A stretch of 64,000 nucleotides of DNA, from positions 1,496,928 to 1,560,927 of the forward strand of contig JAQTSV010000001.1 in NCBI GenBank assembly GCA_028711115.1, given 5' to 3'. Shown here one piece after another: positions 24,401-63,400 of this stretch. Numbering within the stretch: the first letter of the stretch is position 1; each line of letters begins with the position of its first letter. The position numbers were made by a program, and so were the translations under genes. This DNA is from Candidatus Omnitrophota bacterium. GTDB lineage: Bacteria; Omnitrophota; Gorgyraeia; Velamenicoccales; JABMQK01. The notes beneath the pieces were generated by a model. It did no database searches, was not told the DNA's origin, and saw nothing but the letters and a program-made list of their open reading frames with translations.

Positions 24401-27400
24401 TATTTTCGATATCCCTCAGCTCAGCTATGGTTCTCTCTACATCAACGGCCAATCCATTCTTTTCTTCTTTTTCGTCTTCTCCGTATTCTTCTTTATCTTT
24501 TTCCTCATGTTTTCCTTTTTTCTTTTCTAATACTTCTTTGGCAATCTTGCGCGCTTCATCATAATTATATTCTCTGAGCATTGCCAGACGCCTTACAATT
24601 TCATACTGAATAGCTCTAATCTTGATAAGGCTGTTTCTGGTATTTCGCAAATCGCCAATATGATTATTGAATAATTCCGCTATACATGTATCTGGTATAA
24701 GGCTGGCGATAGCGGCTTTTCTTTCTGACAATGCAGCAAAGCGGGCCTTTTCTTCCCTAATTCTACTTAGCGGCGGCGCCAAAATTCCGGCACCAGCCAT
24801 TGTCTTGACATCCAATACGCCTTCTGTAAGAACAAGCGGCCTGACCTGCACAACATACAACACGCCGTTTCTCTTGACTGCCTCCAGTTCGACAGGTATG
24901 CCGTATAAACGGTGGTAGCCGCGTGCCACTTTTGCCATATGCACCTGTTCTTTGTCTGTCAACACTGGCTTGTTTTGTTCTCTGCCGGCAACAGGAACTC
25001 TCGTTACGCCAAAACCATTTTCAGTATTGAATACAAATCTTTCTCTCTTTTGCGGTGCGGATCGAGTATAAGCTGTCTCTGTCATCAAATTAACTACATA
25101 TAAATCGCTGTCAACTTCTCCGGAGACTAATCCTATTCCGGCGCCGTATGCCGCGCTGATAACTGCTTCTTTCCAGTTTAATTCCATCGCGTTGATGGAC
25201 GAAACAACCATACTGGCATCAGCCTCGACCTGATGATGGATAAGAACTGGCTGCGTAGCGTCAACTCTGCCCATCTCAACCCAATAATAAGCTGAACACT
25301 TAAGGATGTGTCCTAATAGCAATTTACTTCCACGTATATAGGGATACGATATAAAACGGCCTGCCATGGCAGCTTCTGGTCTGTCTTCATATAGCGAAGA
25401 AGACCTAACCACCACAAATACGCCGCCTTCCCTTAAATAAGCATCGTGCAGCGCCTTCTTAAGATCCTTTTTAACATTCAGCGCCTGAATGATTTCTCCT
25501 AATGTGGCTGGCTGAGCTTCGCCTTTTTTATGTTTATCTATGATGGCACTAATGACTAAATCGCGTTCCTTGCCTGGCTCGAATGCAATATCAATAAGCC
25601 TTCTGATTTCTTCTATCTTATCCTCTAACGGAATAAGGCGTTCTAATTCATGGTATTTTACGGCAATTTCTTCTTCTGAGGGGTTAACCATTCTTAAGCA
25701 CAACTGCGTAATCCTAACAAGCTTTGCATTATGCGGAATGCTCTCTCTAAGAATTTTCTGTATCTCTTCCACAATCTTGGCATTCGTATCAAGAAGCTGC
25801 TGAATACCTAATCGCGTCATCACAAAACCATCAGGTATCTCTACGCCAAACTGAGTGGTATTGCGGATTTCCCCTATCTCAGCAGCTTTATTGCCAAGCA
25901 AGCCCGCCAAATAACTGCCTGCCTGCGCCAGACCTAATACGTTTCGGGATTCCGAAAGTTCAATCCGTGCGATTTCTTCTCTGATACAGGAGTCAACCCG
26001 CTCAGCCAACTGCCTTACTCCTTGGCCGCGATAAGTAATATAGGTATGTAAAGACTCCGACTGGCGGATAGCCCGTACTGCCCATCCAAAATCGCGCGGC
26101 TTAAGCTCGCCCCTGTCTAATTTTTGCTCAATGATTTTTAAATCTTCTATGGACTGCTCACGGAATATTTCTATCCTGTCTCTATAAAGATTTTGCACTG
26201 TTTCAATCTCGTCTGTGAAATCTCTGGGCGTAAACCCTAAGCGCTCTTTTAATAATCTGACCATTTTGTTAAAATCCCTTAAGTTGTTGCCTAACTGATA
26301 ATAAGTAAACACAACCTCGGTAAGATATTCTGTTTTGGGAATGCGCATTTGTGCTAATCTTATCCACTCCTGGACGCGTTGTTCATAGATACTTAGGGCC
26401 TGTACAATGTAATCCTTAATTTGCTCTGCAAGTTGCGGCACTGGATGGGAAATAAGCCGTTCGATAATGGCAGCTTTATACTCATCATTGGTCAGTATAT
26501 TCTCTATTAAAATCTGCTGAACAATAAACTTCATCAGTTCTATATTTCTTGTGGTAATGATAGCCAAAAGCAGTTGCTTCAAAAAGAAATTATGCTTTGT
26601 CTGTTCAAGGCGCACTAAGGCATTGTATATAGTTTGAACTCTGACCCTGAAATCCTGGGCGACATCAAAAGAGGCGCCAACCGCAGTCACTGACTTCTGG
26701 TAGGTGTTAATAGTAATTATGTCTCCTTCGTAAATAAACACTTTTACCTCGGCACCCGTATCATCCGTAGTAACAATCTCAAGGGCATATTCTTCGCCAA
26801 CTTTTACCCATTGTGCCGAAGGAACAATGACGCTGGGCCTGCCAGCTGACTTCAGGGTTAATTGTGCGTGGTCTAATGGCGCTCCACCGCGGGTTAATGA
26901 ACCTTTTGCCTCCATGGCCTTGCGCACATCGCCAGGAACTAATGTATCATCAAAGAATATAGCATCTCTAAAATCCTTAGGAAGTTTTTGACTGCTATTT
27001 CGCATAAGCCGACCAGTAGCAATTCCCCTAGATGATATAGTAACCTCGTGTATGGCTACACCTTTAGGCATTGACAGGCTGGCAAACGGTGAAACAAATT
27101 CTTTCCCAACCACAAAAGACGTATCGGATAAATAGCCGAATCCTTTCAATTTATTTTCTAAACGCGCGGCGTCATCGATAACATTTGACTTTCCGAAAGG
27201 CATTTCTAAATGCATGCCTTCCACAACAAAAGCAAATTCAATATCCCCCGATTCATAATCTCTTAAAACGTAAAATGTTGTTGTGATTGGTAAAGTTTCT
27301 AAAGAAACTGTCTCCAGGCGGCCTTCCGGTAATTCTCTTATAATCTTAAACTGATTTATGGATGGATCAATGCGGCGGGCGATTGCAGCACAAGATATAA

Positions 27401-42400: not shown

Positions 42401-45400
42401 TTATTCTTCCTAAAACCAAACGGCGCCTATCGCGGCCGGGGTATTTTCTGAAATTTAATATTCTTTGCTGTATTAACGGATGCGAAATAAGATGCCTTAA
42501 GACAATAACTGTATCCTCTCTCGTAAATTCAGATTGATCCTTTAAAGCTTCATATCTTAAATCACCAACCTCGACTATATATAACAGAGCCGCTAATCTT
42601 TCTCTGATTTTTACACCGTTTTCGCCATCAACAGTCCTCCACCAATCCTTAAATAATCCCTCCTGGATATCCGGTAGGTGAGAATAATCTTCTACAATGG
42701 CATTCCATAAAACTCTATCTGACGAATAGCTCTCCATTAATATGCCCCTTACTGCGGAATCTGTTAATCTAGCCTGCTTAGCCATAAGCCCTTGAGCCTT
42801 CTGTCTGTTGGTTCTATATTCAATAACCTTGGCTGCGATATAGGGAATTTCGGCAAAATTTCTAAGATAAAGCAGTGTTTCACGCCTATGAGTCGACATA
42901 TCAGCACTACCTGCTACTTCCTGTCTTTCTAAGGCAATGTCGTTAATAAATTCGCCTTCGGCAATCCTTCTGAGTACTATACTTGCATCCGAAATTAATT
43001 TTAGTTGATCGTGGTAACGGCTGGGATTTATAGCTGCGGGAAATAGATTAATCCAACGCACAAGTTTTTCTCTTTCCGCCTCATCTTTATTCATCCAATA
43101 CAAAACCCAGGCTATATTAGTCCAATCGCCATCCTGCAGCTGTTCTACATATTGCGTTTCTCCTTCAAACAAAGAGACAGCTTCCTGGTATAAGCCAAGA
43201 ACTTCTTTATTTTCGGATAAAATACAATTTATCATTTCATCTAATGCCTTGTTAAATCGCGGCTTGCTTGTTTTAATTTCATAAGGCAATATGCTAAAAC
43301 TTATATCGCGTAAATTAACGATTCCTGAAATAATCCTATATTTATATTCATCCGCAGTAAATAAGGCTTCTGCTGCTTTGAATAACTCAGGGTAGCGCTC
43401 AGACAATATCCTTAAAAGCCACATCATGCGGTATCTCTTAAGTTTTTCATCTGTAACTTTCAAAGGCGAGGAGCAAGATAATCTGAAATCCGAAGGTAAA
43501 TTTTCGTAAAGCTTATAAGGCGCGGTGCGGCGCACAAAGCCATCAGTATCCAGTGCATACCCATGACGCTCAAAAAGTCTTTTATGCTTTTCTGTCGGTT
43601 TAACCTGTGCTGCATGAAAACCTGCCAGATACATCCAAATCTCTACGATATTTTCAATTCCTCTTAAGTCAACGCCGCGCAGATTAACCCGCTCTAAAAC
43701 AATGCTATAAAATACCTGAATTTCTTTTAATATGGCTGCTATCTCCCCAGGCTCTTTTAACAACCCAACAATCCCTGCGTCGCCTATCCCGTATATTCTT
43801 AAAAAGGCGCTGAGCACGTCTACAAAATTTGAGTAGCGTTTTGATAAGAAAATCCTGCTGCTTGGGTCATCTGCGTGATGCAGCTTTAAAACCATCCCCT
43901 TAATATTTCCATCATCAATAAATACATCATTAATAATAATAAAATTCGTAAGACCAAACCTGCCCAAATCTCCACGGAACCCTTTTCCTATTGCATAGAC
44001 AAGGCCCGGAATAGGCTCATTATTTCCGAAACAAATTAGATTATCCTTAAAGATTGTGGTTGATATACCCTGGGGATGTGACCATTTTAAATGTCCGTCT
44101 TCATAACATAAGACATATGAAGAATTGCCCAATAAAGACTCTATATGGCGGTCTTCGCAATCCTGGCAAGTACCTTCTCCCGGCCGCAATAAACTACTTT
44201 CAATTTTGCCTTCTGGGCCTAAGTAAATTCTCCGCGGATACTCATTTTCTGCCCGTTCATCCAAAAGCCCTAATACCAGCCTTGTCATTTCTTTAGCATG
44301 TTCTGAAACTTCCACCGGCGAGCTGGAGCATGGCAAGAATTCGCTTACAGATCTGAGGTCTTTCGGCATTAGCGACTCGGTGACATAAAGACCTTCTTCT
44401 TTTAATTTAACAGGCAATCTAACGGTAACTACAACACCTTTATTTTCATCACGACGATTGCCGATTTTAACACTGCCGCCTAATTCTTTTACAAAAATAC
44501 GATAAACAAAAATAAGACCGAGCCCTGTGCTTGGATATTCTCTTACGCTAAGTCCGGGCAGGAAAAGCAATGAGGGAACCTCTTCTTCGCTTAAACTTCT
44601 AATTTGCTCTTCAGGTATAAGCCTTTCTTCTATAGCAGCTTTAATGACTTTTTCATTATCAATCTGTTTGCCGTCATCTTTAAACGTTAATTCAATTTGC
44701 AAATTATCTTTGTCATCAATCAGATTCAAGTCGATTTCAAGGCAAGTAGTATTTTTATCCCCCCAGAATGCGTTCGCTACCAATTCCGCTATGACATCTC
44801 TAATCGTAGCTTCGCCTATGCCAACCTGGAAACCCGATATGCGTTCATCAATAAACAATTTTATTCCATTATAATGTTGTTCTACGGCTTTTAAGAAATC
44901 GTCTAAATATGCTGTATTTAAATATTCATAAAAACCTTCTGCTATTATCCTTCTGGTTTTAGCTTCAGATGGTCCTATTTTTATCTTTATTATAAGAGCG
45001 GTAATGACTAACAAAATATTTAGCGACAACGCTGCGGTTAAGAAATAAGTAGCCGGCAATGAAATCGAAAGCACATCGGCAATATGCGAAAATACGCTGG
45101 TTAGCGGCGAGCTGGAAAATTTAATACCAGGCCCTTCTGAGATAATCTGGCGCTCGAGGGGCGAGCTGACAGACTCAAGGCTATGTTTAATTCTGCCTAG
45201 GGTTCCCAAAAGGACCTGGCTTTTCGCAAAAAGATTCCAGAACCTGCCACGGTAGGTGGAATCTTGCGAAACAAATCTATTATTTAAGGTAATTGATTTA
45301 TTAAGATTTGATATTTGACTAATTGGGCTGGAGGAATTTGAATTGATTTCCTGACGGCTTGCCTCAATTGCGGAGGAGACGAGGCGGCCGCCTGGAATCA

Positions 45401-48400
45401 CGCCTTCGCTTCTGGGGCTCAATCCTGTTTCTGCCAGATAATCAATTATAGGATTATGGCTTAGCGGCGAGGAAGAAACGGTAACTCTTACATCATCATA
45501 ACCATAATCGCGCATCCAGTGATAAATTTCCAAATCCTGATCAATCTCTTTCATGCCAACCACGGATGCCCTTGCGGTGAGGCCGTATTGATTTTCTCCT
45601 GACAGAGGCGCGGGTAACTCCACTGTTGCAGTATAAACTCTCTGATTACCCTTTGCCGCGGATAAATACATATCTTTTATATCCCATGGCGAGCCGTAAA
45701 TACCATAGTGCAGTTCTACTTTCAGCCTTTCCGGCTCCAAATCTGAATCGACACAGATACGGACTTTATACATAGACTGCGTTTCTGCGATTTTAACACG
45801 GGTTAATCTGTGCATGCCGAAAATCCTGGCATCCTGCCTTATAAAATCGAAAACCCTGTCATAGTCTCTTACCATGCGCGTAATTGTCACTCTTTCATTC
45901 GCCATTAAATAGGACTGGAGCATCATCTCAAGTAGCCTGGGATTACCTGTCTCTCTATGCGCGTAATAAATTTCGGAGGCCTCCTGTAAATATTCGGCCA
46001 ACAGCTCCTGCGCTTTCTTTCTGAAAAATTCCACAATTTCTTCTTTCTGCGGAAATCCATCTTTTAGCTGCATTAATTTTACAATATCTTCAAACAAATA
46101 TTTGCTTCCTGCGAATACATCCATAAGCCAGCCATTGACGCGGTGTATTATATATTCCAACGGACCTGCTGTGAATGTGGCAATATTGAGTCCGCCGCCA
46201 AATGCCGGTCTTTGATCACTGGTACCAGCGGCTTCTCTGGTTGTACGCGGCATACTTACCCACACATTGCTTGCCTGCGTAGCAAGTTTCATTATTTCAG
46301 TTCCTGAGCCGGCAATAAAAATGAACTTTCCTCTGAGCGTTTCATCTTGCGCTATTTCTTTAAATTTCGCAACCCATTCCCTGCCGACCTTATCTCTTCC
46401 CACGCCGCCTACTAAAAGATTCATCCCCAGACCATTTTTCATTCCCCACGGCGTTTCATATTCTCTGTCTCTGTCTCCGGTAATCCAATGTATAAGTCCA
46501 AAAAGAATCCTCTGCTCCTTATAGGCCACGAACCTTCTTACAAGGCCGACTAACGGCCTTCCTAAATCAGAAAAACCATAGCCTACTGCTCGCTCAAGGT
46601 ATTCGTTTAATACCGGTTTTGCAGCTTCCCTTATAATAAATAAATCTTCGCCGGTTATATTTTCACCGCGGGACTTGCGCTCTCTTTCTTTTTCCTGTAA
46701 TTGCCTGCTCTTCCAGATTTTGGGGTCAGAACCGTTAAGTATGCCAATAATCTTTCTGGCAAATTCCGGCAATATCGCTAACTTAGTCACTTTCTTGTGT
46801 TCCTGCGATACACAATTTATAATAACAGCGCGCTCTGCCAGTCTTCTTGCCATATCAACTCTGTTATCGCGCACAATCCAATCAGGAACCATATCTTTTC
46901 CGATATATTCTTTAAGCCAAGCGATATTATCATATACAGGCAAGGCAGCTGCTTCCGGCGTATGCGAAGTTAATTCGACCTTTGTATTTATGTAAATACT
47001 TTTTTCTCCTTTGCCCTTAAAGTAATCGATGTCATTCTGCATAGCCACCAACGCAAATAACAGCTGCGGTTCATTTAGCCTTAAAATATCGGGAGCAACG
47101 CCAAAATATTTGAATAATTCCACATAAACCCTGCCTATAAATGCGAACTGAATAGCCCTATCCGGCTCTTCAGGATACATTACTTTGAATATGAAAGGTT
47201 CATAGGCCAATAATACAGGAGCTCCGTCTCTTTCCCCGATATAGAAATATACAGTATAATTGCAGCCGTTAAATGCCACGTTTATTTTTAACTGTTGGTC
47301 TCTGTCTTTTACTCTGACCATTAAAGGATTAACGCCTTCCTGCTTATTCCAATCAATTAAGTGCAAATTTCCATCGGGGTCTTTATAATGGGCATAACAA
47401 ATCATAAGCCCTAAGGCATTAACGCCTATCTGGCCATACCCGCCGAAAGTCTCTCCTGCCAGAAAACCTAATCCGCCGCTGGCCAAGGCCTGCTGCGCTA
47501 TGGGATTGGTGATTTCAGGCAGGAACGCCTCAAGTGTTACATCCGCCACAAATCTGCCGCTTTCTAATATTCTGGTTAAATTTTCATTTGTTAATACAAT
47601 TTTTTCTGATATCGGACTGGAGGATTGCACCTTTTCCACATATACCATTCTTAGGATTCTTTCTCCGCCAACAGAAACAATCTTAAGGCGGCGGGCTGAA
47701 CCCAGCTTCTGCCAATCCCTGTTTGCTTCTTTAGCCAATTTTATTAGTTCTTTCAAAGTCAAACCAGGAATATTAACCAGTTCTCTTAATCTATCTAATG
47801 AGAAATCCAATAATTCTATCTCCAGCGAACCAGAAGGAAGTTCAATATCTGAAGTATTCAGTTCTATCATTGTCTCTAACGCCAGTATTCTATTGGAAAG
47901 CTCATCCGGCCTGAAAATTCTTGCTATTTGCGCCAGTCGCTTTGCACCAATCCATTTCTGCGCCATAACCATATTTACAGTGAGGCGTTGTTTCTTTGAC
48001 TGCGAAATTATCAGTGAACGCAATGCCTTCTTTGCTCCGGGAGTCAGGGGCAATGAATCTATTTCTTCAACGGTTATGAGATTTATGTCCAATGGATACT
48101 TTTTAAAATATCTTATCTTAATACAATCGTTTATCTTCTGCAGCGCCTTTTCTTCAGTTTGGCTTACTGCTTCTCTTGTCATTTCATAACCTTTTTGCTG
48201 CCCAATCTCTTCTAAAGTATGAATAATACCATCCCTTGTGCCGTTTCTTAACTCCAGCACTTCTATTTCGCGCTGGCTTAATTCTGTAAGTTCGGTGGCC
48301 ATTTCAATGAGTTTACGATAATCTTCAGGATAATTTTCAGATAATAGTTTTAACGTAAGCGAATCAACTGTGGCAAGGGCGCTTATGCGTATCGCCTTTA

Positions 48401-51400
48401 CAATAGAAGCTATTTTTTGTGCATCTGTATCTGATTCTATCGGCGAGGAAGAATCCTGTTGCACAGCTGGGAATGTCCTGTAAGGAATAGCGTATCTTCT
48501 CTGTCCTTCGTCAAAAGGTATTTCTGTGACAGGGAACTGATATCTAAAGGTTTCTTTGTTGGCTGTGGCCCTTATTCCTGCCTTCAAATATAAAGGCATA
48601 TCTTTTATCGCCTCGTACACTTCTTCTAATAATTGTTCTGACGCTAATGCTTCTCTATTAGACAGGCGCAGCAGTAAATCTGTACTCAAAAATGCTGTTA
48701 AAATAGTTTTGGCTCTTTCAAGGCCGGGGAATTCTATAATTCCTCTGGCATTAATATCTAATGCTATGCCTATATTATTCAATAATTCTATCTGCCGGGG
48801 AGTTAGTCCTTTTATATCGTAGTTATATGGCTGGCCTCCATATAACAATTTTACAATCGGCTTGTGGCAATCTTCTGTCAATGCCAATATCAGATAATTG
48901 ACAAAAGCCCTGAATTCTTTCGATTGAGCACCTTTTCCAAACACCTTGTTTACACTCTGCCACAGAGATAAATCCCTCACGGAAAATTCTATACTGCCGT
49001 CTGCCTGGAATATAAATTCTACAGCATCGGGGCATTCATAATGTGGTATATCAATACCTTTTTCTAGTAAAAACTTCCTTGCCCTGCCTTCTTTCCAGAC
49101 AATTGCAAAATCTGAACACGACAACTCTACTCCGCTTTTTCTAAACATCTCCTGAATTTCTGACCAAAGCTCAGCCGTAGCCGTGTGGAGATGAGCAAAA
49201 TATCCGGCGGCGAAAACACGGATTCTTATATCTTTACGGATTAACGTTCTAATCACATTTACATATTGCTCTTTATAAATGGCTTTTGCTTTCTCTACGT
49301 CCCTTAGCGTTATTGGATAATAAAGATGAAAACTTAATTCTATGTTCATATCATAAGGCAAATTGGCTATGCGTTCTGCTGCGCGCTGGCTTATGAGAAA
49401 ATTCTTTCTCCACCCCTGCGTAATAATATTTATTTTAAAGTTGGCTCGATGAAGACTTTCTACCACATCCGCTAAGTCCGCATCCAATACTTCATCATAA
49501 TAATCAAAAGCGTCATTTGCATCATGAAGCAAAATATCGTAACAACGTCTTTCTTTCATTTTCTCTATCATCTTCAAAACAAAAGGATAAGGCATGCTAA
49601 TAGCCTTACCTTTAGCATCTACAAAACAAAATAAACATCCCCTGGGGCATCCCTTTGTTATTGCTAATACAGTATACCTATTACCACCTAATGACACGAC
49701 TTTAAAGAATGCCTCTTGTACGGCATCTGGTATAGAAGCCATAACATCCACAAAAAGCTCTAAATCCAAATCTGTCTTTGAGACGACTGAAACAATCAGT
49801 TTTTGTCTTTCATCTGTTATGTCTTGAGCGCTTAAGCCTTCTGTCTGCCACTTTATAAATTGCGCTAATAAGTCCTTTCCTCTCTGGCTTAATATATTCT
49901 TCTTATCGTATGCGCTTAAAATACGGATTCCTTCGCTGAGTTGTTTCAAAGAAGAATCTTCCAGCGGCGAGGAGGAACGAAGCGACGACGAAGCCTCGCC
50001 AATTTCTGTGGCGGGCGATGAGGAAGAGGGGTCAGAAAGATTTAAAAATGAAGAAGCATCATCATAAAGCTTATAAGGTGCGGCGCGCTGCACAAAACCA
50101 TTTGCGTCTACTGCATACCCATAGCGCTCAAAAAGCTGCCTATGCTCATCTGTGGCTTTAATCTGCGCTGCGTGAAAACCTACCAAGTACATCCATATCT
50201 CTACGATACTTTCAATTTCTCTTAAATCCACACCTCTCAAACTAACCCTCTCCAGGACGCTCTGATAAAATATCTGGATATCTCTTAGTACTTCTGCAAT
50301 ATCCTCGGGGTGTCGTAGCAATTCCACAAGCCCTGCCACATCTTTATCATTTATACCATGTATTTCTAAAAATGCGCTAAGCACATCTACAAAATTTGAG
50401 TGGCGTTTTGCTATGAAAACGGTGCGCTCGGCGGGATATTCTGGCTTATGCAATCTAAAAATCATTCCTTTAATATTTCTGCCGTCAACAAATACATCAT
50501 TAATAATGATTAAATTAATAAGGCCGTGTTTCTCTACGTCTCTATAAACGCCTTTTCCTATTGCATAGACCAATCCGGGGATTGGGTCGTTGTTCCTAAA
50601 ACTAATCAGGCGATGTTCAAAATTTGCGACACCCATAACATCGCGCTGCGACCACTTTAAACGCCCGTCTTCATAACACAAAACAAATGACGAATCGTCT
50701 ATAAGCGATTGGGCATGGCGATTTTCGCAATCTGGACACACATTTACTCCTGGTTCCAAAAAGCTCTTGTCAACTTTACCGGTTGGGCCTAAGTAAATTC
50801 TTCTTGGAAATGCTTGTTCTGCCCGGCTATCTAAAATCTGCAATGCCTCCATTATCCTTTTATCAACTGACTCTTCCAGCGGCGAGCTGGAAACAAATAA
50901 ATAACTACCAGGCCCTTTTGAGCGCTTATCTTTGAGGGGCAAAGATAAGCCATCATCTTGGGTTCCCAAAAGGACCTGGTTTGCAAAGTCTCCATTACCT
51001 GCCACGGTAGGATGGAAACTTCGCGAAAATCTATCTGTATTGCTGACCGGCGAGCTGCCAGTTGTTTTTCCTGATTTTATTATTTGGGCGGGAGATTGTA
51101 ATCTATATGACTTATGTTTTAAACTATCCACTTCTGTTACTAAAGCCAAGCACTCTTTTTCTAATCTTTGAATATCTCTTTTAAAATCGACCACTTCAGG
51201 GGCTCTTTCAATATCATCAATGATTCGCTGTTTGCACACTTCTATTTCTTGTTCTAATTGTTCTATGCGTTCCCTGGCATATGCACTATTGTTCTTTGAT
51301 GTTTTTAATTGATTTAATCTTTGCCTTATCTTTGGTAATTCACGTTGATATTTTTTATTGCTTTCTCTTATGTTAGCTCTTGCGCCTTCTAAGCCAGCCC

Positions 51401-54400
51401 TTGCTTGTCTTAACAGCTTCCTCGTCCGATCCAATTGACCTTGTTTCTGTAAAAGTAAAATTCCCGTGCTAAAAATTGAGCCGGAGATTTCGGCATTGTG
51501 CTCATCCGTTGATTCGGTGATCGGCGAAGAAACAATTATGTCATCTTTGTACTGTTCGTAAAATCTGACAAAATTTAATACGCGTTTTCTCAGAAATTCT
51601 GCGCTTCTGCCTCTGGTAGCAGCAGCATCCAAGAAAGCACAGGTAATCAAGAAGGCAATTACTTCCTGGGCTCTGCCTGGTAATTCAATCCCTCTTACAA
51701 AATTCTGGACTATTCTGAAAGGTATCTCTCCTTGCGGCATTGCGTAGAGCGCGCCGTGGATCCTTATGACTTCCAATAATAAATCTCTATTTGGTAAATT
51801 GCTGGCTAATTCCTCGTGTTCCTCCAGCATCATTACTGACTCGGCTTCGTGTCCCGGATAAGTTATTAGCTTTACGCCAATCTCATTAGTGACTTCTGTG
51901 GGTTTAGTTCTTATCTTTCCTATATCATGTAAAACAATAAATGATTCGTAGAATATTCTGTTCTCCCGAGCAGCCAACATTAGCCTATATCTTAAAGGAA
52001 GTTCTTTGTATTTATCCTGGTTATTGAAAATATCAAGCATGGCCTGGAGATGGTCTCTGAGCAAACGCCCTTCTGCATGATAATTTAAAGGATGATTGGG
52101 TATATTAAAATCAAAATACCGCCTTAATATTGCCGGGATATGTAAATCTATTAATTCTGAAATATCGGTTACCGGCGAGCTCGACTGCGCATCCTGTTTT
52201 AATGCCGCCTCAATGGTAGGTATTAAGCTGGCAGTGCCTTTGAGTTCATAAATCTGTATGTCTCTTTCCATATGGATTATTGGATAGCCTGCGCTCTGCA
52301 ATGTAGTCAGGATGATGTCGCCGCCGACTAATTCAGTGAACAGTGTTTTTGAGCCTTTTTCTGCTTCCCTGACATATACAGGTACGTTGTAAGTCGAAAC
52401 ATTCTGTAAGGCATCCAGCACAAAGGCATGGTTAAATGTGGCTATGGGCTGAGTTTCAAATTTAATGTCCTTGAGGATTCTCTGCAAAGCCAGGCTTTCC
52501 ACAAAGACAACTTCTTTTGTATCCCTGTTGTAGAGTATTGTGCCGCCTTTTTGTATGTGTTTGGGATTTTGTTTGACGTATTCGCCTGCAGCATATAACT
52601 GGCCGTTGGCAAACTGGGGATGGACCATAGCCAAAAAGCCTTCGTTCCAGGGATCCTGACCCCAAGGCCTTAAGTCGCCGATGGTGCACTGGCTGACAAA
52701 TTTAACTCCTCTTTTTCTGGCGTATTCAAGAGAGGAGATGTTGAGCTGATGCAGCCTTCCATCTTTAGGCATAATGATATAGCCTTTGCCAACCAGGGTT
52801 GTTTCAAGCAGAGGTACGCCGTTACCGCCTGCCTTAAATATGCCCGGGGCAATGCTTACTGCCTGGCGTGTGGCAAGCGTGGGCAAGAAGACGGGATTTT
52901 TGCCCTGGGGCTGGATGATAAAACAAGCCCTGTTATAGCCAACGTATTCGTTTTGGATTAGTTCTTGGGCGATCTTTTCTTCATCGCCTTCTGTGCAGCA
53001 GAGGATGAATGTCTGTCTGGCGCGGGCTGCTGCTGTATCAAAATAGCGGGACTTCTGCTCCAATATCCTGGCTAAGATGGAAATATTACGCAAATCATTT
53101 CTTCTGTCTTTTAATCCTCTTATAATATCTACCTCTTCGGGTTTGATTTCTCCCTTGGCTAAAGCTCTTTGGAAGGCTTTTTCCAAAGCCTCATCTGATT
53201 CAGGGCTTAAGAGATGCCTTATGTCTAACAATATCTTGGGTACGCCCAATCCTAACCTGGTGGCGTCTCCGCCTGCAGGAATAAGTACTGCCCATTCGCC
53301 ACCGTAGAGGGATCTTCTGAAGGCAATCCTTGCTGCTTCATCGACCTGGCCTCTCAATACTGCGTCATTGCCGGGTGTACCTGCTAAGCTGACCAGGTTA
53401 GACAGCTGGGGATGTTCATTGAGTTCATCCAGATGATCAAAGATACCTTCGCCGTATTGTGATACCAAAGACACCAGGAGCGCCTGGGTGGCTATAAGCC
53501 ATGATTTATCATTAGTGTAGGAGCTGGCTGAGATGACCAGGGGCGAGGAGGAGCGACGCGTATCGGGCATATTTGGCTGCAAATCTGATATTTTTTCACG
53601 AAGACGTATCTCGCTTTCTCTTAAATTATTTGCGACTAAGGCAGAAACCTCTTCACGTCTAAAATCTTTTAGTCCATCTTGACCTAAGACTGCTATTATC
53701 CTATCCCTATAAAACCAATCTAACCAATTTGTTTCTATGTTATTAACCACTGCGTCCAATAACCCTAAGTGTTCATTGTATCTGTCTCCGTAAAATCCGG
53801 TTAATTGCGGTTTGCCTGCCAGCTTCTTCTTTTCCAGCCCTAATTGCCTGAATACTGCAGTATATATAGGTACCAATCTACCTATCGTAGGATTTCCATA
53901 GTCCAATTCTATTTCTTCTGTCAGACTTAAAAAGTAATAACCGTGTGCATACTTGGTATTGAATTGCAACCACTGGCTTATCTGATAAGCCCTCAAATAA
54001 ATCCTGGCTACAAATTCTGTAAGTAATTTTCCTCCTGTTAAATAGGACTCAAGCCAGCAAGTATGTATGCTGGCAGCTGCCCTATCTAAATTCAGATTGC
54101 CTTTGCCAATCAGTATAGCGCCTGAGAAAAATTCAACCGTTGCCTCAAATTCATCTTCTGATATTTTTGAGATATTCCACTGCTCATCTATAGTATGACT
54201 AAGAATTAACGGACGAACCTGTTCTGATGACTTATCGTCGCTCACCGGCGAACTGGACTGTCTTGCCTTTGCATCCTGTTTTAATGCCGCCTCAATGGTA
54301 GGTATTAAGCTGGCAGTGCCTTTGAGTTCGTGAATTGTAATCGGCCTTTCCATATGGGCAATCGGGTATCCGGCATTCTGGAGCACTGTAAGTATTATGT

Positions 54401-57400
54401 CGCCGCCGACTAATTCAGTAAACAACGTCCTTCTTCCTTGCGAATCCCTGTTTCCTTCCCTGATATATACAGGTATGTTGTAAGTCGAAACATTCTGTAA
54501 GGCATCCAGCACAAAGGCATGGTTAAATGTGGCTAAGGGTTGATTTTCAAATTTAACGGTTGCAAGAATTCTTTTCATAGCCAGACTTTCCACGAATACG
54601 ACTTTTCCTGTAAAAGGATTGTAAAGTACTGTGCCGCCTTTTTGTATGTGTTCGGGATTTTGTTTGACGTATTCGCCTGCGGCATATAACTGGCCGTTGG
54701 CAAACTGAGGATAAACCATAGCCAGGAAATCTTCGTTCCAGGGATCCTGTCCCCAAGGCCTTAGGTCACCTATGGTGCACTGGCTGACGAATTTAACTCC
54801 TCTTTTTCTGGCGTATTCAAGAGAGGAGATATCAAGCTGACGCAATGTCCTGTCTTTTGCAATAATATAACCCTTACCGATCAAGGTTGTTTCAAGTAAA
54901 GGCACGCCGTTACCGCCTGCCTTAAATATGCCCGGGGCAATGCTTACTGCCTGGCGTGTGGCAAGCGTGGGCAAGAAGACGGGATTTTTGCCCTGGGGCT
55001 GGATGATAAAACAAGCCCTGTTAAAGCCAAAGTATTCGTTTTGGATTAGTTCTTGGGCGATCTTTTCTTCATCGCCTTCTGTGCAGCAGAGGATGAATGT
55101 CTGTCTGGCGCGGGCTGCTGCTGTATCAAAATAGCGGGACTTCTGCTCCAATATCCTGGCTAAGATGGAAATATTACGCAAATCATTTCTTCTGTCTTTT
55201 AATCCTCTTATAATATCTACCTCTTCGGGTTTGATTTCTCCCTTGGCTAAAGCTCTTTGGAAGGCTTTTTCCAAAGCCTCATCTGATTCAGGGCTTAAGA
55301 GATGCCTTATGTCTAACAATATCTTGGGTACGCCCAATCCTAACCTGGTGGCGTCTCCGCCTGCAGGAATAAGTACTGCCCATTCGCCACCGTAGAGGGA
55401 TCTTCTGAAGGCAATCCTTGCTGCTTCATCGACCTGGCCTCTCAATACTGCGTCATTGCCGGGTGTACCTGCTAAGCTGACCAGGTTAGACAGCTGGGGA
55501 TGTTCATTGAGTTCATCCAGATGATCAAAGATACCTTCGCCGTATTGTGATACCAAAGACACCAGGAGCGCCTGGGTGGCTATAAGCCATGATTTATCAT
55601 TAGTGTAGGAGCTGGCTGAGATGACCAGGGGCGAGGAGGAAATGACGCTTGTTTTTTCAAAATCCAGAGAGCTGCTTGCCGTTCTATTCAAACGACTGGC
55701 GGGGGTGGTGCCAATGGCAGCCTCCGGATTATTGTTTATTGCTTTGAAATCTTCCGCCACGGTGGAATTCAAAACAACTGGTAAAAATCTATTTGTTAAA
55801 TTATTATTGGTTATAGGTGAGGATGATGACGAGATGAATTCATTTGCGTAATCTGCGGTTATAATTCTGCGTTCTCTGTGGTTCTGACGGCCAGCCTCGA
55901 TGGGTGAAGAGGCGCCGCCTGTAATCGGCCAGCCACGGGCTGAATTGCGTTCCGAAACCAAACCTTTATCAAATGGACTGGAGGATTGCACTTCCTGCTT
56001 CAGCACCCGATAGGCTTCTTCCACTTGCTGTGGAATATTAACGTACACGAGAAATCCCCTGCCTTGTGGGCCATATACATCAGGATGCAAACGATAAACT
56101 TCGCCGATAGCCATAGCAAGCATATATCTGAATTCTTTCTCCTCCATTGCTGCAATATTAGATATTTGCGGAGTAAAGCTGATAAGCGTTAATTTCTGCC
56201 ATTTTCTATTCTCTGCTTCATTAATAATTTTATCAAACGTTGCCATTGCCCTTCTCTGGAGAGCCGGATGCTGCAAGACGACAATGCTTCTAACGGCCTC
56301 ATTGCTGCCTTCCAGGAGCGCTAATGTATTGCGGATATTTTCTTCGCTGTTAGTTGAAGTGGTGTCAATGGCTACAAAATCTTCTTCCGGAATTCCATAC
56401 AGATACAAAATATCCCGATAAATTTCTGCTTCTGATTTTTCTTGTAAGCCTGCTATTTTATCTGCATACTGAGAGCGCTGGATATTCTCTCTTAATAATT
56501 CGGTCTCTCTGCCAATGCCTCCAGCGATTAAAATCCTTCTCGTCAATCCTTGTTTGTGAATGCGCGCTGCTTCTTCGATAACTTCAAGACGGCTACTGCC
56601 CAAAATTAAAAGAATATCAGCGCTTTGTATGCCAAACCTTTCAAATAAAGCTTTTGCGCTCATCTGTGCAACATCCCGCTGCGTAAGAAAATCAAGTAAC
56701 ACCTGTGTCTTGACCCTTAAGTCCACTGTCGGGCTTGAGCTTGTGAAATTATTTCTATCATTTGCTCTGATCGGGCTGGAATTGGTAGAATCATTTCTGT
56801 TTTCTTTACTCTGATTTGTGAGCGGACTGGAGCTTTTCTTCTTTTCTTTATCTAGTAACTCCCGTTTCTTTGCTTTGGCTGCTCGCTTTACTGTTCGATC
56901 TGAATCGTTTAGCATAGCATCTGTGATTTCAATAGATTGGGTAGCAGCTTTGATCTCAACTATATCCAATATCTTCTTTACTTCTTGTAAAGCTTGTTTC
57001 AACTCAGCGTGTTTGCCGGCATTAAAGTAAATAAGCGCTTTGTGCATAAAAGAGTTAAACCTGACTCTATCGCGATCACTCATTTTATCTTTATTTTTCT
57101 CGTATTTGTTAATGAAATCTAGATTTAAGGCTGTTGTATATCTAAGAATATATACCGCTGCAGCATCTAAAGACTGCCTTGCATATTCATAAGACCCATC
57201 GCCAAACCTTATCAGTATATTATGGAAAAATGCCTGGAGAGTGTTTCTATCGGGATTATCCTTAACAGGCATATCATTTTCTTTGCTGGCGTAGTCTTTG
57301 ATAAGCGCTATATATTCTTCTTTCAATTTATTGGCTGTCTTAAGCTCTATAATTTTACCTATCGCAATAAACACTACTATTAAACCTCCGACCACTAATC

Positions 57401-60400
57401 CTATATTGCCCAGCGCGTTCATAGATATTTCTTCTACTATGCCTGGAGCAGGAATAAATACAAATAAATCAGGCGTAGGAACTATAACAAAGATTAAAAA
57501 GGCAAACATGGTTATTATAAAAAACCTAAAGAATATCCAAGTTATTCTTGATAAAACTTTATCTTTTATTTTGGAAACAACAAATAACATAATTATTGCA
57601 GCTATTGCAACAGGCCCCAAGAATATTGCAAAGTTAGCAATTAATACGCTTAATAGTTTTGTAGAAATTCCTGTGATAATAGCTCCTCTCAGAATATAGA
57701 GTAAAACTCCGCCTAAAAACATGCCAGCTACCCCTACAACTGCATCTCCCCAACCCTTCCATATTCTCTTACCAGGTTTTGCTCCGACTAAGAATGGGCC
57801 GATAACCATAGAAATGCCGAAGAAGTAAGAAATAAATAAGCAGATGGCATTGGTGAAATCCAAGCCTACTGCGAAAGCAAATATGGTAATAGAGCTGATA
57901 AAAACACCGAGTATAACCTCGCCTCTGAGAATATTAAGGTATCCGCCTTTCATAAACTTACCAATAAAAGGAATTCTGCCGGGAATAGAACTGCTCCCAA
58001 TAAGCAGACCTAAGGTTAAACAAATGGGGATCATAATAGAAACGATTGGCGCAACCGCACCGAATTTCATTGTAATAGCTATACCCGCGGCGAGACCAAA
58101 AATTGCGCCTACTATTGGCAGTATAATACTGCGCATCCAATCCGCCTTAGTTGGTTCTCCCATACTAGTATCTTTCTTGACTACCCAGTATTCCTTCAAT
58201 ACGTTGCAATTATCATAGCCTGCAATAGCTCCAGACGTTACAAATATCCAAGGCACTCCTTTATAGCTTCGTATTTGAGCCAAGGTTTCAATGGCAAAAC
58301 GATGAGCGAAAAGTAATATATCTCCGGGCCGCTCACTAAACCAGCGGGCAGTAGCCATCCAAGAATTCGTAAGCACAAGACCAAAGAATGCGAAAATAAT
58401 GATAGTGGGCCAGCTCGCTCCAACCACAAAAGCTAATAAGGCTGCTACAGTCATACCAACAAATGCTTTCCAGGTCTTTATGCCGGACATAGCTTTTGCA
58501 GTAGCGCCCAATCCGTTCAAAGCTGCTATCTGGTTAAATAATGTTCCGATGATAAGAAAGATAAATGAAATTCCTACGAATGGCAGTATATCTAAAATTA
58601 TACCCACAGGTATAAAAATGATATTCAATAATGCCAATGGCATAATCGCATAGAAATCTTGCACATTGCGCCTTGCCTCTTTTTCAAACCACGACTCAGG
58701 CCCTAATTCGCCTATATTCTGCAGAATAAAATCGCTTAACATATTGGTTAAGCCTTCTGACCAGCGCACTGTAGCACTGCCTTCTTCGCCAGGGCTAAGC
58801 CATTCCCTTAATTTAGACCATATAGCTTCTGATAACGCGAATTCCGGCCTCTGGCCTAAACCAATGGCATTATGTGTTTGTGCCCAGATATCAGCGGTAT
58901 CTTCGCTGGGATGCGGTAAGTGCGGGCCAAGGCCTATAATTCCGTAACGATACCAATCGGCATATTCAGAGAAATTATATATCGTTTGTGCATCTATTGT
59001 AATAGGCATAACAGGAAACATATAATTGAGCATTGCCGTTAAATATCCTTCCGGACCCTGATCCATCATTCTCTCGAAGTTACCCCAACCAGAGCACAAC
59101 TTATCGTTTAAAGACCACATAGAATATCCGTGCCCGCCTTCGACTAACCACGACATCCTGCCCATATGCATAAGCCTGTTAGAGGTATTACGGGAACTTG
59201 TCGTTAGAATAAGATTGTCGTTGCTCATCATCCTCTTTAAATCCCGGATAAATGCGGGTAAATCCAGGCAGTTACTATTACGGTCCATAATGGCTAAAAT
59301 CTTAAAATTCTTAACTATCTTGTGTGGCAATGTTTCCATGCTGACCATTGCTCCGGATTTAGCAGCAAATACAGTGAATGTATGTATAAAATAGCTGCTG
59401 CTATTATCATTGCCTAACAAATAATCCACCAGCTTCATCATCTTCATATAATTAGCAAACTGGGGTGGTACTTCTTTGCCTTTTTTAAACAATTTTTGCC
59501 AGTTTGAAGTAGGTATAAAACAGAAATTATTTCCCCAGCCTTGTGCCCTTATCTCTTTTAGCATTGCCATAATATTAACAAGCACATCGAATGAGCCCGC
59601 GCCTCCGCCTAACGGCTTTACACCGCCAACTTTGATAAAGAAAAATGTCTTTACAAAGAAGGCTATTTTAAGTTTCTCTTTTTGTGCTTTTTTAGTCTCT
59701 TCGTCGAATTCTTCGTCTAATTTGATTTTGCAATTCTCTGGAATTTTATCATCTTCTATCTGGTCTAAAATACAAAGATCAATCCCGGATGCTTTTTCTC
59801 TCTCGGCTAATAACTTAAGGCATTCTTCTATTAGCTTCCAGAAATCTTCATCTTTCATATTTGCCTGTAGGCCAAGCTTTATGGCTGCCCATTCTCTTAA
59901 TTGTTTTAGCGCAACTTCGGCGCCCAAATCGTCGTTTTCTAATAACCAGTTTAAAGCCCTGATTATAGATTCTGTATCTGTGCCGGCTCCATCGTTGGCG
60001 AGGAAATGACCGACGTAATTTAATAAAATCTTTTTACCATCGCGTAAAAAGCCCTTGATTTTATCTTCATCAATCTTTACTCTTTTCATTGGGCCAAAGA
60101 TTATACCGGTCAGATACTGTATCAATGACCATATACCATAATGCATAGTAGTCAAAATGAGCAGCGTAGTAAGGTTGGCGCCGATTAGCCTTGTAATCAA
60201 GCCGCTTGCGACGTGGTCTATAAACCAAGGCATACCCACCCAGAACATCAATAAACCCAATGCATTAAATATAACATTATGGGCGATAATCATGCCTATT
60301 GTCCTGTTTCTGCCCGGCCCGATTGTCGGTCTCCAATCACGATAGATAGAAAGGGCGATGACAGAATGTTTCCAGAATAAGTAACCATACGCTTCCAATG

Positions 60401-63400
60401 CGAATATCGTAAATAATATAGTTTTAAATAAGAACGCGCCTGTAGTTATCGCTGCCGGCAAATTAACGACTACAAGATAAGCAAATAACGCAAAAGTCAA
60501 TCCTAAGGCTATCCTTAATAGTCTTAAGAATGCATTTTTACCCATACCTAAATATCTGAACCGGGAAAGCTGGTTCCACTCTACTATTGAGGTAATTACT
60601 ATTAATACAAGCGCCAGAATTATAAACGGCTGGGAGATAAAACTTAAACCCATGGTATGAGTTAATCCCAAAAGAACGCTGCTGGTTAAACCAAGCATTA
60701 AGAAACGCAGGTATTTTGAAGCTATGAATAATGCGAAAGCATGGATGGACTTAGTGCCCAAGCCCAACATCCTCCTTATTGAACCAAATCTTAAATTTCC
60801 TAATTTCTTGAAACCATGCAAAGTAAAGAAGTTATTCATGTGCTCTTGGTTTACAGCGCCGTTAATAATACCCATTTCTGCAAGAACTTTTCCAAATAAG
60901 CCATTATCTTTTCTTCTTAAAGCATCTCTTAAAACTATGAAGGCATTGTCAAAATACGCTGTTAATTTAGCATAAATTTCGGGATCAGATGTGCCTTTAG
61001 CTTCATACACGCTATCTTTGGATCCACGCGAGAACTCAGCGCCTGCAATTCTTGATGCCTCTCGCAAATATTCATCAAAACCGGAAAGTATGCGTTCTTT
61101 CTCACTAGCGTCTTTTGTCTTAAGCCACTGTATGATTAACTTTAATACCTGTTCTGCGTGAGTAAAAAATTGGATGGTCGGATCGTTACAAACCACTGAC
61201 TTCTTGCCAACCGGCGTAGATAAAGGCGACGATGACTCTGTCTTTACGTCAAGAATCTTTCTTATTCTCTCATGGGCTTCTTCTACGACATCAGGGTCTA
61301 TGTCAGGTTTTCCTTTGTTGGGCTTGATTTGCGTCTCAACAAACTTCTCCCATCTTTTCTTATCTCTGAAGTGTTCTTTCAATAATATCAATATAGGTAT
61401 AAGGACTGAAATTACTAACAAAATGATAAAGAATGCACCTGTTGTTATGGACTTTACGGAAGGAACAAGGGCAGGCACGGATTTGCCGTATTCGTTAATA
61501 TGGACCATGCCGTTTTCCCAATAGTCACTGCCGAACCAAATATTAGCAGCTGACCAGTACTGATCCTCTCTGCCAGTTTGAGCATCATATTTTACCTTTA
61601 ATAAATGAGCGATTGGCTTTCCGTATTCATTGTATGCATCCGAAGGTTTCAGATATGGCACGCTTAAATCATAAATAACTCTTTTCTGATAAGGCAAGAA
61701 ATACCTTATTGGATGAGCAATCTTTTGTTCATATGTCTCGCCATATAAACGATTATATATAGTCACAAATTCCTGTATTTTTAAATTTCCGTTTTTAACT
61801 GAATAGAAGAACCCTTCTTCATTGCCTTCTCTGCCATATTTTTCGAAAGTTTTTTCTGTGCCTGGCTCAACCGATAACCAATTCAGATGGAATAATCTAT
61901 TGCGATTTAACCAATAGTCTTTAATTTTGAAACTTTTGATTCCAGGCAATATTCCGAAAGGAGCTCTATTGACGGAATCTTTCTCAAGCCACCACTGATT
62001 AAATGTAAGTTTCTTTTCGCTTTCGCTTACTATCCTGTTAGTCATAACCGACCTGCCCAGCGGATCGCCTGGGATAAGATATTCAGAGGTGGGTTTTCCA
62101 TGATAAATATCGGAGAAATATGTTTCGCCTGTAACTTCATCCGTTCCTTTGAAGAATGGCGTATCTCTGACTATTCTTAATTGCGAATTGCTTGTAATGC
62201 CTATCAGCGCTAAATCGCTCCAGATATCGCGGTTATATTCTTCAGAATAACTATTTACAACGCCAGAGGGTATTGCCTCTTGCATTCTTTCCATAGGCAT
62301 TGCATCGTAAACATTGGATATCTGGTCACCCAAGACTACTCTATAACTACGCAATGAACTCCTGATATCCCAGTTTACCGTTACAGATTTGTAGAGCTCA
62401 TGTTCTGAGCGGTCGGAAACCAATATCCTGCCGAACGGGTCGCCTGAAACTCTGTAATCAACCCAGTTGTTTGTTAATACGCCTTCCGGAAAATCTTGGC
62501 TATAGAAATATTGTGTGACTTCTTCGCGCTGCAATCTTGTCTGGTCGCCTATGGCCATACCTCTGTCTGTGGCCCAATCACTTCTAATGCGATAAGGCAA
62601 GTTAGCAACTGAACCCAGCACGCCTTCAACACTTGTTTCATTGGGATATTTTATTTCTAAGATAAGATTCCCTTCATAAGATACAGAAGCAGAATTTGGC
62701 AGTGTGGGATTATATCCAAAATGATTTTCTATAACCCATTCCCTAAAGCTACGCGTGAGCCTTAACCCCAAGAGATTATAGATATCTGTGCGTTTAATGT
62801 TCTCGATTAAATCTGTCGTCTCCCAAGTTGTCCTTCCGCCAACCATACCGCTGGTTCGTTTTGCTTTCTCAAATGGCACTAATTTTGGCGCCGGAATATT
62901 CGGGATATTGACGAAAACATCCAGGTCAAGGTATTTAGACTCGCTTGACCAGGCCATATTCAAGAATAAGGCAAATACTCTACCGTCATAATCATAAGTG
63001 GTACTACCGATAAGCCTGAAGTCTCCGGTTGCCGGGTTCCTCTGATAAGATTCTTCGCTAAGAACTGCACCTGTAGCCACATCAGTTATGCGCGCGAAGT
63101 TAAACATCTCATCGCTTGCGAGCTTTTTGACATTCCACTTTGTCTCGCCCATGTAAATTAGGTCTTCTCTGTTGCCTTCTTCATAAAGCTGCCAGTCGCC
63201 TGAAAATGCATCGGCAGAAGTCAATCCCTTGCCTTGGGCGCCTTGTTTATCGTAATAGTTCCATGACTTACTTGCGCGCCTCATATATTTCTGTAACATT
63301 ATCTTTTCATAATCAAGTTCGCCGCTGGCGTCATAACAAGTATAATCATAAACGCTCTTTATGCGCATATTGCCTTGCTGGGTGATTTCCCACAAAGTCG

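Follow-up and report, generated by a model that had tools for sequence, protein, structure and literature searches.

A stretch of 64,000 nucleotides (nt) from a Candidatus Omnitrophota bacterium (NCBI GenBank assembly GCA_028711115.1, contig JAQTSV010000001.1, positions 1,496,928 to 1,560,927 of the forward strand; hereafter the window) lies within a single giant gene, and this part of the gene encodes two copies of one enzyme module resembling UDP-sugar pyrophosphorylases. The DNA of the two copies is almost identical over one half of the module and clearly diverged over the other, and the question raised by the locus is how and when such a pair arose. A sequence-only reading had taken it for a very recent tandem duplication of a whole module including its junction. 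The analysis described here points to another history, namely an old duplication, exact from junction to junction, followed by gene conversion between the N-terminal halves within the gene. We hold this explanation as a whole to be likely.

Structure of the repeated module

Under the bacterial code, one frame of the minus strand was free of stop codons from position 63998 to position 3 (21,332 codons) and open at both ends, and was called as the internal part of a giant multi-enzyme open reading frame (ORF). Unless stated otherwise, all features mentioned below are encoded in this frame on the minus strand, and amino acid (aa) positions refer to it. The order along the gene is junction J1, copy A, junction J2, module X, junction J3, copy B, junction J4 and the next module. 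Copy A (54258-55640, aa 2787-3247) has 461 aa and copy B (52185-53552, aa 3483-3938) has 456 aa; both are UDP-sugar-pyrophosphorylase-like and begin with a junction marked by the tetrapeptide SSSP. They are separated by module X (53553-54257, aa 3248-3482), a single-copy orphan of 235 aa. The proteins encoded by A and B are 92% identical.

The N-terminal 246 codons of copy A (54904-55640) and of copy B (52816-53552) form a homogenised tract of 737 nt with exactly 2 mismatches, at an offset of 2,088 nt, that is, 696 codons in frame. The near-identity with few substitutions that had been reported here is thus borne out, and the identity is lost abruptly at both ends of the tract. Both mismatches (52936/55024 and 52943/55031), which the sequence-only reading had already quoted, are nonsynonymous and fall at 55024-55031 of copy A, which reads NEYFGFN where copy B reads NEYVGYN. 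The position belongs to a conserved motif, [YF][YF]GF, for which copy A has YFGF, copy B has YVGY, and the homologues have YFGF, YYGF or FYGF. Since the homologues carry an A-like motif, the derived state is that of copy B.

The C-terminal halves (54258-54903 versus 52185-52815) are 78-86% identical at the nucleotide level, in agreement with the earlier description of this part as more diverged. The single indel of 6 nt given there is in fact three indels of 3, 9 and 9 nt, which shift the offset from 2088 to 2091, 2082 and finally 2073, a net change of 15 nt. The patch 52189-52248/54271-54330, which had been called identical, contains 1 mismatch.

No second copy of X was found in the window by tiled BLAST, which was used because a BLAST search of the whole protein against itself gave the trivial hit only. 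Local alignments of X with the module after copy B and with the region before copy A scored below the means of shuffled controls, and X as a degenerate second copy at either place was thereby ruled out. No Pfam, NCBIfam or database homologue of X was found, with a homologue search that is unreliable for fragments of giant proteins. A single-sequence AlphaFold2 (AF2) model of X was all-helical and unusable (predicted local distance difference test [pLDDT] score 36). As X is present once only, the repeated unit is one module, and the apparent period of 2,088 nt is the sum of a module and X. The duplicated unit proposed earlier, a UDPGP-like module plus junction plus one unrelated module, does not hold, because the entire 2,088-nt unit of A and X does not occur twice.

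The GC content at third codon positions (GC3) was 0.51 in the homogenised tract, 0.43-0.49 in the diverged halves, 0.35 in the flanking X and in the next module (Y), and 0.39 gene-wide, and the GC skew flattened over 52185-55640. GC-biased conversion may be the source of this enrichment in the tract, but a high GC3 is also seen in some single-copy modules of relatives.

Silent divergence and probable gene conversion

Substitution rates were determined by Nei-Gojobori counting. In the N-terminal 246 codons there were 2 nonsynonymous differences, no synonymous difference inside the tract and 1 at the boundary codon, which corresponds to a synonymous divergence (dS) of 0.006. In the C-terminal 216 codons dS was 0.66, the nonsynonymous divergence (dN) 0.10 and dN/dS 0.16; judged from this ratio, both copies are under purifying selection. 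The change in silent divergence between the halves (dS 0.006 versus 0.66) was abrupt and beyond chance, with none of 20,000 permutations of the silent sites over the whole module being as extreme. Taken by itself, the diverged half also showed clustering of its silent differences, both in a runs test (p = 5e-5) and in the length of the longest identical run (p = 0.01 in 20,000 permutations), as expected from shorter, older conversion tracts scattered there.

Because a dS of 0.66 stands beside 737 nt without silent change, the duplication is old and the homogenisation of the N-terminal half is recent. On these counts, recent gene conversion best explains the near-identity of the N-terminal halves. 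What had been called very recent is therefore the homogenisation only; the unconverted parts of the two copies, including a short stretch recovered from a second assembly (see below), show dS values of 0.60-0.66.

A very recent tandem duplication of the 2,088-nt unit (UDPGP-like module, junction and X), with divergence since then, would account for two nearly identical stretches of 737 nt that lie 2,088 nt apart in frame. It would also have left a second X, yet X occurs once and nothing similar follows copy B or precedes copy A, and such an event cannot leave half of a unit silent-saturated (dS 0.66) and the other half identical. We regard this history as very improbable.

According to the explanation favoured here, the module would have been duplicated long ago, exactly from junction to junction, and the copies would now flank X. 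As direct repeats 2,088 nt apart, they would undergo intragenic gene conversion, a non-reciprocal form of homologous recombination, presumably of the RecA type. The latest tracts would have wiped all silent differences from 737 nt of the N-terminal half, as far as the junction that limits the homology, while the C-terminal half would retain the old divergence together with a few shorter identical patches. The arrangement A-X-B may have been reached by duplication of A and X with subsequent junction-to-junction loss of the second X, by duplication of A alone with subsequent insertion of X, or by placement of a module copy at a non-adjacent junction; the data favour none of the three routes. Copy B has accumulated somewhat more lineage-specific replacements in the C-terminal half than copy A (11 versus 3, 8 versus 6 and 12 versus 7 with three outgroups).

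Six other paralogous module pairs were observed in the ORF, with 46-71% aa identity and mostly saturated at silent sites. They are located at 43464-44375 and 50013-50945, 1269-1493 and 45087-45335, 21651-23198 and 23205-24812, 18312-19526 and 20523-21740, 5223-5942 and 7695-8387, and 3-428 and 1707-2105. A local dip in the proportion of silent differences (pS) was seen at aa 13416-13536 (pS 0.14-0.34 versus 0.6-1.0 nearby), and the 73-aa pair among them, at aa 6222 and 20836 and 44 kb apart, had a pS of 0.24. These local dips suggest older conversion or duplication events.

The second assembly of the strain

A second public assembly of the same strain (GCA_028714715.1) contains NCBI contig JAQTLW010000005.1 (L001), whose sole product is MDD5353147.1 (P0003), from a metagenome-assembled genome (MAG) of a Candidatus Omnitrophica/Omnitrophota bacterium. 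The contig spans 5.3 kb upstream of the window and then window positions 64000-53426. Its alignment with the window covers 10,575 positions and has 52 differing columns, all within 55116-55293 of copy A. In this 178-nt island the window's copy A equals copy B, while the version of JAQTLW010000005.1 (14014-14188) holds the 52 differing columns and shows a dS of 0.60 and a dN of 0.30 against the window's copy B. On either side of the island, copy A of JAQTLW010000005.1 has 347 nt and 213 nt that are identical to the window's copy B.

As the dS of the island (0.60) is close to that of the C-terminal halves (0.66), the island would be a surviving unconverted piece of the old sequence of copy A. 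The patchwork around it agrees with the prediction of patchwise gene conversion and confirms the old age of the duplication; a recent tandem duplication again fails to provide for such divergence. The sequence-only reading had seen in the mosaic of identical and diverged segments a sign of gene conversion, and this part of it is well supported by the step in dS from about 0 to 0.66, the clustered silent differences and the island.

JAQTLW010000005.1 reads copy A, X and then the first 127 nt of the second copy (15752-15878), where the contig ends. Since the order is the same, the arrangement A-X-B is not peculiar to the assembly of the window, and assembly duplication, which had been raised as a possible source of the repeat, can be discounted. 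An artefact of another kind would be one in which the near-identity of the 5' halves arose wholly or partly from bubble popping, mis-threading or polishing with multi-mapping reads, copy A of the genome being like the version of JAQTLW010000005.1 or more diverged. A 737-nt perfect repeat is hard for short reads to span, the two assemblies agree over 10.4 kb and disagree exactly inside the repeat, as if derived from one dataset, and the stop 127 nt into copy B is presumably what a de Bruijn assembly with k = 127 would produce. However, the 347-nt and 213-nt flanks of the island and the 127-nt start of the second copy are identical in both assemblies, and a collapse would not have kept the A-specific bases 55024 and 55031, which both assemblies carry. 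An artefact of this kind is in our judgement unlikely as the source of the near-identity.

The loss of the island from the window was weighed separately. A real conversion polymorphism, caused by very recent conversion from B to A with copy B as the presumed donor, is somewhat favoured, and an assembly artefact, in which the assembler or a curator led copy A through the version of copy B, is a substantial alternative for this one stretch. Both are compatible with the lack of any other difference in 10.4 kb.

Several points tell against an old duplication with recent conversion. Copy number and the linkage of the island to copy A are taken from assembled sequence. The window and JAQTLW010000005.1 are otherwise identical and may share a sample, in which case the loss of the island could be due to assembly collapse or mis-threading. 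Copy B is known from the window only, save for its first 127 nt in JAQTLW010000005.1, and the island in that contig could stem from an unseen third paralogue at another place in the genome. Finally, the two differences within the tract are 7 nt apart and may be either post-conversion mutations or a tiny unconverted island.

Copy B of the second assembly was not recovered, nor were other assemblies of the strain, from GTDB representatives, JGI metagenomes or a protein homologue search. The scan of GTDB representatives with a single protein and the scan of JGI metagenomes with a 32-mer from the shared tract gave no match. The homologue search with the C-terminal half of copy B plus the next module also gave no match, but this search missed P0003 as well, despite three queries that were 95-100% identical to parts of it, so that its negatives for fragments of giant proteins are untrustworthy. 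Five independent MAG contigs of related giant genes were seen to break off within the N-terminal part of this UDPGP-like module, namely L001, P0005, P0006, P0011 and L005 after 42, 204, 126, 68 and 283 residues, respectively. The module may also be repeated in those genomes and break short-read assemblies there.

Two plus-strand ORFs of 76 aa at 53077-53307 and 55165-55395, which had been pointed out as products of the repeat, are indeed identical; their status as features was not upheld, as they are antisense to the giant gene. They had no Pfam match and are antisense by-products of the repeat, not genes. Their identity in both copies would be in line with selection that acts directly at the nucleotide level, through an antisense gene, a regulatory element or an RNA embedded there, and keeps the 5' halves identical. 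Yet there was no Rfam match in the window, JAQTLW010000005.1 tolerates 52 differing columns within the antisense ORF at 55165-55395, which overlaps the island, and selection of this kind would not give a step that ends exactly at the homology boundary. Such selection is exceedingly improbable as the cause.

The module, its junctions and the giant gene

The fold of the module was predicted with AF2 and an alignment of its family (pLDDT 86, predicted template modelling [TM] score 0.89). The best 50 matches of the model in a Foldseek search against the PDB were all UDP-GlcNAc, UDP-sugar or UDP-Glc pyrophosphorylases (E 3.8e-15 to 2e-11), with alignments near full length (about 410-497 columns), TM scores of 0.5-0.58 and about 14-17% sequence identity. 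The model predicts the three-part UDPGP fold with a central nucleotidyltransferase (Rossmann-like) domain, as in AGX1, UAP1 and USP. A profile of the module family matched only UDP-GlcNAc pyrophosphorylases among the PDB sequences (E = 4.9e-8 to 1e-4), while single-sequence phmmer searches against the PDB gave suggestive E values of 0.1-0.8 only. Neither copy matched any Pfam model, PF01704 included, even at E <= 10, and NCBIfam likewise gave no match. The designation as UDPGP-like was thus sound as regards fold and distant family relationship, but not as regards membership in a curated model.

The nucleotide-binding loop of the module reads IPAGGDATRLGLGVPK, compared with LILAGGSGTRLGFDKPK in the enzyme of Trypanosoma brucei, and a glycine-rich loop followed by Pro-Lys is common to both. 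We take the signature loop of pyrophosphorylases to be L-x2-G-x-G-T-x-M/L-x4-P-K, as in AGX1. In the module this loop is L-I-P-A-G-G-D-A-T-R-L-G-L-G-V-P-K, the same in both copies, with Thr-Arg-Leu-Gly and Pro-Lys present; the GxGT position reads GDAT, with Ala for the second Gly, across the whole module family. YFG and GNG motifs are present as well. The module thus shares with UDPGP enzymes (PF01704; AGX1/UAP1, USP and UGPase) the full-length fold, the glycine-rich loop, YFG and GNG, and differs from them in its low identity, the missing PF01704 match and the Ala at the second Gly of GxGT. By modelled fold and distant family relationship it would be a divergent UDP-sugar pyrophosphorylase-like nucleotidyltransferase, with the corresponding activity as a prediction.

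An exhaustive HMMER search of 1.8 billion representatives yielded 17 relatives of the module, most of them within Omnitrophota proteins of several thousand residues and a few stand-alone (430-740 aa). Distant family members also occur two per polypeptide. In six relatives (L002-L006 and P0001) the module was single-copy within the available sequence and 50-57% identical to A and B; A and B, at 92% identity, are therefore closest to one another. In five relatives (L003, L005, L006, P0006 and P0011) the UDPGP-like module directly follows (S/T)SSP[L/I] and, where its end is visible, stops at (G/S)SSP[L/V]. Its neighbours in these five are unrelated to those in the window; a DUF218 module is all that is shared with P0006, and the intervening content differs there.

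A second, related module might also have been brought in by recombination at a junction, coming from a different gene or genome, with partial homogenisation following later. The position of the module between xSSP junctions in wholly different neighbourhoods of the relatives points to cassette movement, and the GC3 of the module (0.43-0.51) is above that of its neighbours (0.35). On the other side, the unconverted C-terminal halves differ by a dN of 0.10 between the copies, against only about 55-60% aa identity to the relatives. We consider import highly unlikely, bearing in mind that database sampling is thin (17 family members among 1.8 billion representatives).

The tetrapeptide SSSP occurs 43 times in the 21,332 aa, compared with 0.26 expected, and in 39 of these cases the next residue is I, L or V. 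The consensus of the junction DNA is TCC-(TCC/AGC)-TCG-CCG. The second serine is encoded by either TCC or AGC, so that at least part of the constraint lies at the protein level. At each of the four positions the codons also deviate strongly from the Ser and Pro usage of the gene (p 3e-6 to 3e-30). J1 at the start of copy A (55629-55640) reads TCCTCCTCGCCC, J2 between copy A and X (54246-54257) reads TCCAGTTCGCCG, J3 between X and copy B (53541-53552) again reads TCCTCCTCGCCC, and J4 between copy B and the next module (52173-52184) reads TCGAGCTCGCCG. J1 and J3 thus agree including the less common CCC codon, which is present in 6 of the 43 junctions. The module after J4 showed a weak HD-like match and a coiled coil.

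A and B are homologous from the first base of their junction codons (55640 and 53552), the preceding 24 nt matching at chance level, up to the following SSSP junction (about 54257 and 52184). With both homology boundaries on SSSP junctions, the earlier proposal of rearrangement at module scale is upheld. Of the 7 internal paralogue pairs of the window, three have both members beginning exactly at SSSP. The original duplication presumably used the junction motif as microhomology, and unequal recombination, which had been put forward, may be the growth mechanism. The junction DNA itself might mediate such events, but its 12 nt provide microhomology only.

SSSP could act as a processing site, as a linker or as microhomology for recombination. 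Tentatively, the junction may serve as the breakpoint at which whole modules are copied, lost or moved within and between Omnitrophota giant genes, in a kind of intron-less cassette shuffling; if so, the pair of A and B and the tract that differs between the two assemblies would possibly be a live snapshot of this shuffling, a view that we hold with equal reserve. Survivorship alone could give the same picture of the junctions, since rearrangements that cut a domain would be selected out. The motif might also mark sites of polyprotein processing, and the processing sites of these giant polyproteins have been called unknown in earlier work. No SSSP junction or linker is mentioned in bioRxiv 10.64898/2026.06.07.730766 or 10.1101/2023.11.21.568195, and literature searches gave nothing for SSSP with Omnitrophota and nothing for the accession.

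Two very short low-complexity segments between junctions (53 and 62 aa) were observed just upstream of copy A at 55641-55985 (aa 2672-2786), and comparable mini-segments of 16, 31, 47, 66 and 73 aa occur elsewhere in the ORF. The segments at aa 2672-2786 were rejected as remnants of the modules that P0006 has at the equivalent place, the alignment score being under the shuffle mean.

The gene itself is a member of the giant genes of Omnitrophota and fits the class of multi-enzyme metabolic clusters of bioRxiv 10.64898/2026.06.07.730766; such genes had been described earlier by West-Roberts et al. (2023, bioRxiv 10.1101/2023.11.21.568195). It shares with them a single ORF of more than 10,000 aa (21,332 codons) in an Omnitrophota genome, many enzyme Pfam families with none dominant (methyltransferase, HATPase_c, radical SAM, starch-synthase-like, HD), and domains repeated inside one polypeptide, which is the rule in the collection of the 2026 preprint. 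At least 20 distinct Pfam families were found along the chain, none of them dominating. The in-frame matches included DUF218/YdcF, radical SAM, sigma-70 region 4, HATPase_c (twice), cytidylate kinase, alpha-amylase, several methyltransferases, amino-acid kinase plus RNHCP, nitroreductase, PPDK_N, a zeta-toxin-like kinase, iPGM and GNAT.

Outside the giant frame the longest stop-free stretch was 263 codons. It lies at 47398-48186 on the plus strand, antisense to the giant ORF, had no Pfam match and is probably a chance ORF. JAQTLW010000005.1 adds about 1,770 aa upstream, still without a start codon, so that the gene must exceed about 23,100 aa. This upstream part (JAQTLW010000005.1 1-5306) is rich in repeats and is followed by a transmembrane stretch just ahead of the first SSSP; next comes a large hydrophobic region (window 56742-61235, minus strand), which had no Pfam match and is probably a multi-pass membrane region.

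That direct repeats close to each other undergo gene conversion is textbook knowledge for bacterial genomes, with surface-protein repeats and the tuf and rrn copies as known examples. Concerted evolution of bacterial repeats by gene conversion was reportedly the subject of a review by Santoyo and Romero in 2005. The pair described here resembles such systems in its direct repeats a few kilobases apart, the abrupt switches between identical and diverged sequence, the tracts bounded by the limit of homology and the clustered silent differences. It differs from them in that the unit is a whole enzyme module of 460 aa within one reading frame, of which only the nucleotide-binding N-terminal half has been homogenised.

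Near-identical modules are also found in the mycolactone polyketide synthase genes of Mycobacterium ulcerans. The very long ORF of enzyme modules, the duplication boundaries at inter-module linkers and the near-identity of the DNA are common to such modular megasynthases and to the present gene. Unlike in megasynthases, the modules here are unrelated enzymes of the stand-alone type that form no assembly line, and there is one near-identical pair only, over half of its length.

The module pair is a real and well-resolved case of conceptually ordinary repeat evolution in an unusual gene. According to bioRxiv 10.64898/2026.06.07.730766, exact nucleotide-level repeats are rare and mostly dissolved in giant Omnitrophota genes, and the repeat architecture is ancient and not derived from recent expansion. 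In contrast, a near-perfect repeat of 737 nt exists here, and gene conversion acting on an old duplicate was not considered in that work. The case fits the ancient architecture described there and adds that conversion is still acting and is able to mimic recent duplication. There is also a practical hazard, as two assemblies of the same strain disagree inside the repeat and several related MAG contigs end inside the module.

The most interesting feature of the locus is the SSSP motif rather than the duplicate pair. The pair offers a base-pair view of how one giant bacterial gene has probably changed, by copying of a module from junction to junction, retention of both copies by selection and the later homogenisation of one half of each. 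It also shows that nucleotide identity can misdate repeats in giant genes, the near-identity in this case probably reflecting conversion and not recent birth, and that a view of giant-gene repeats as all ancient would overlook ongoing exchange between them.

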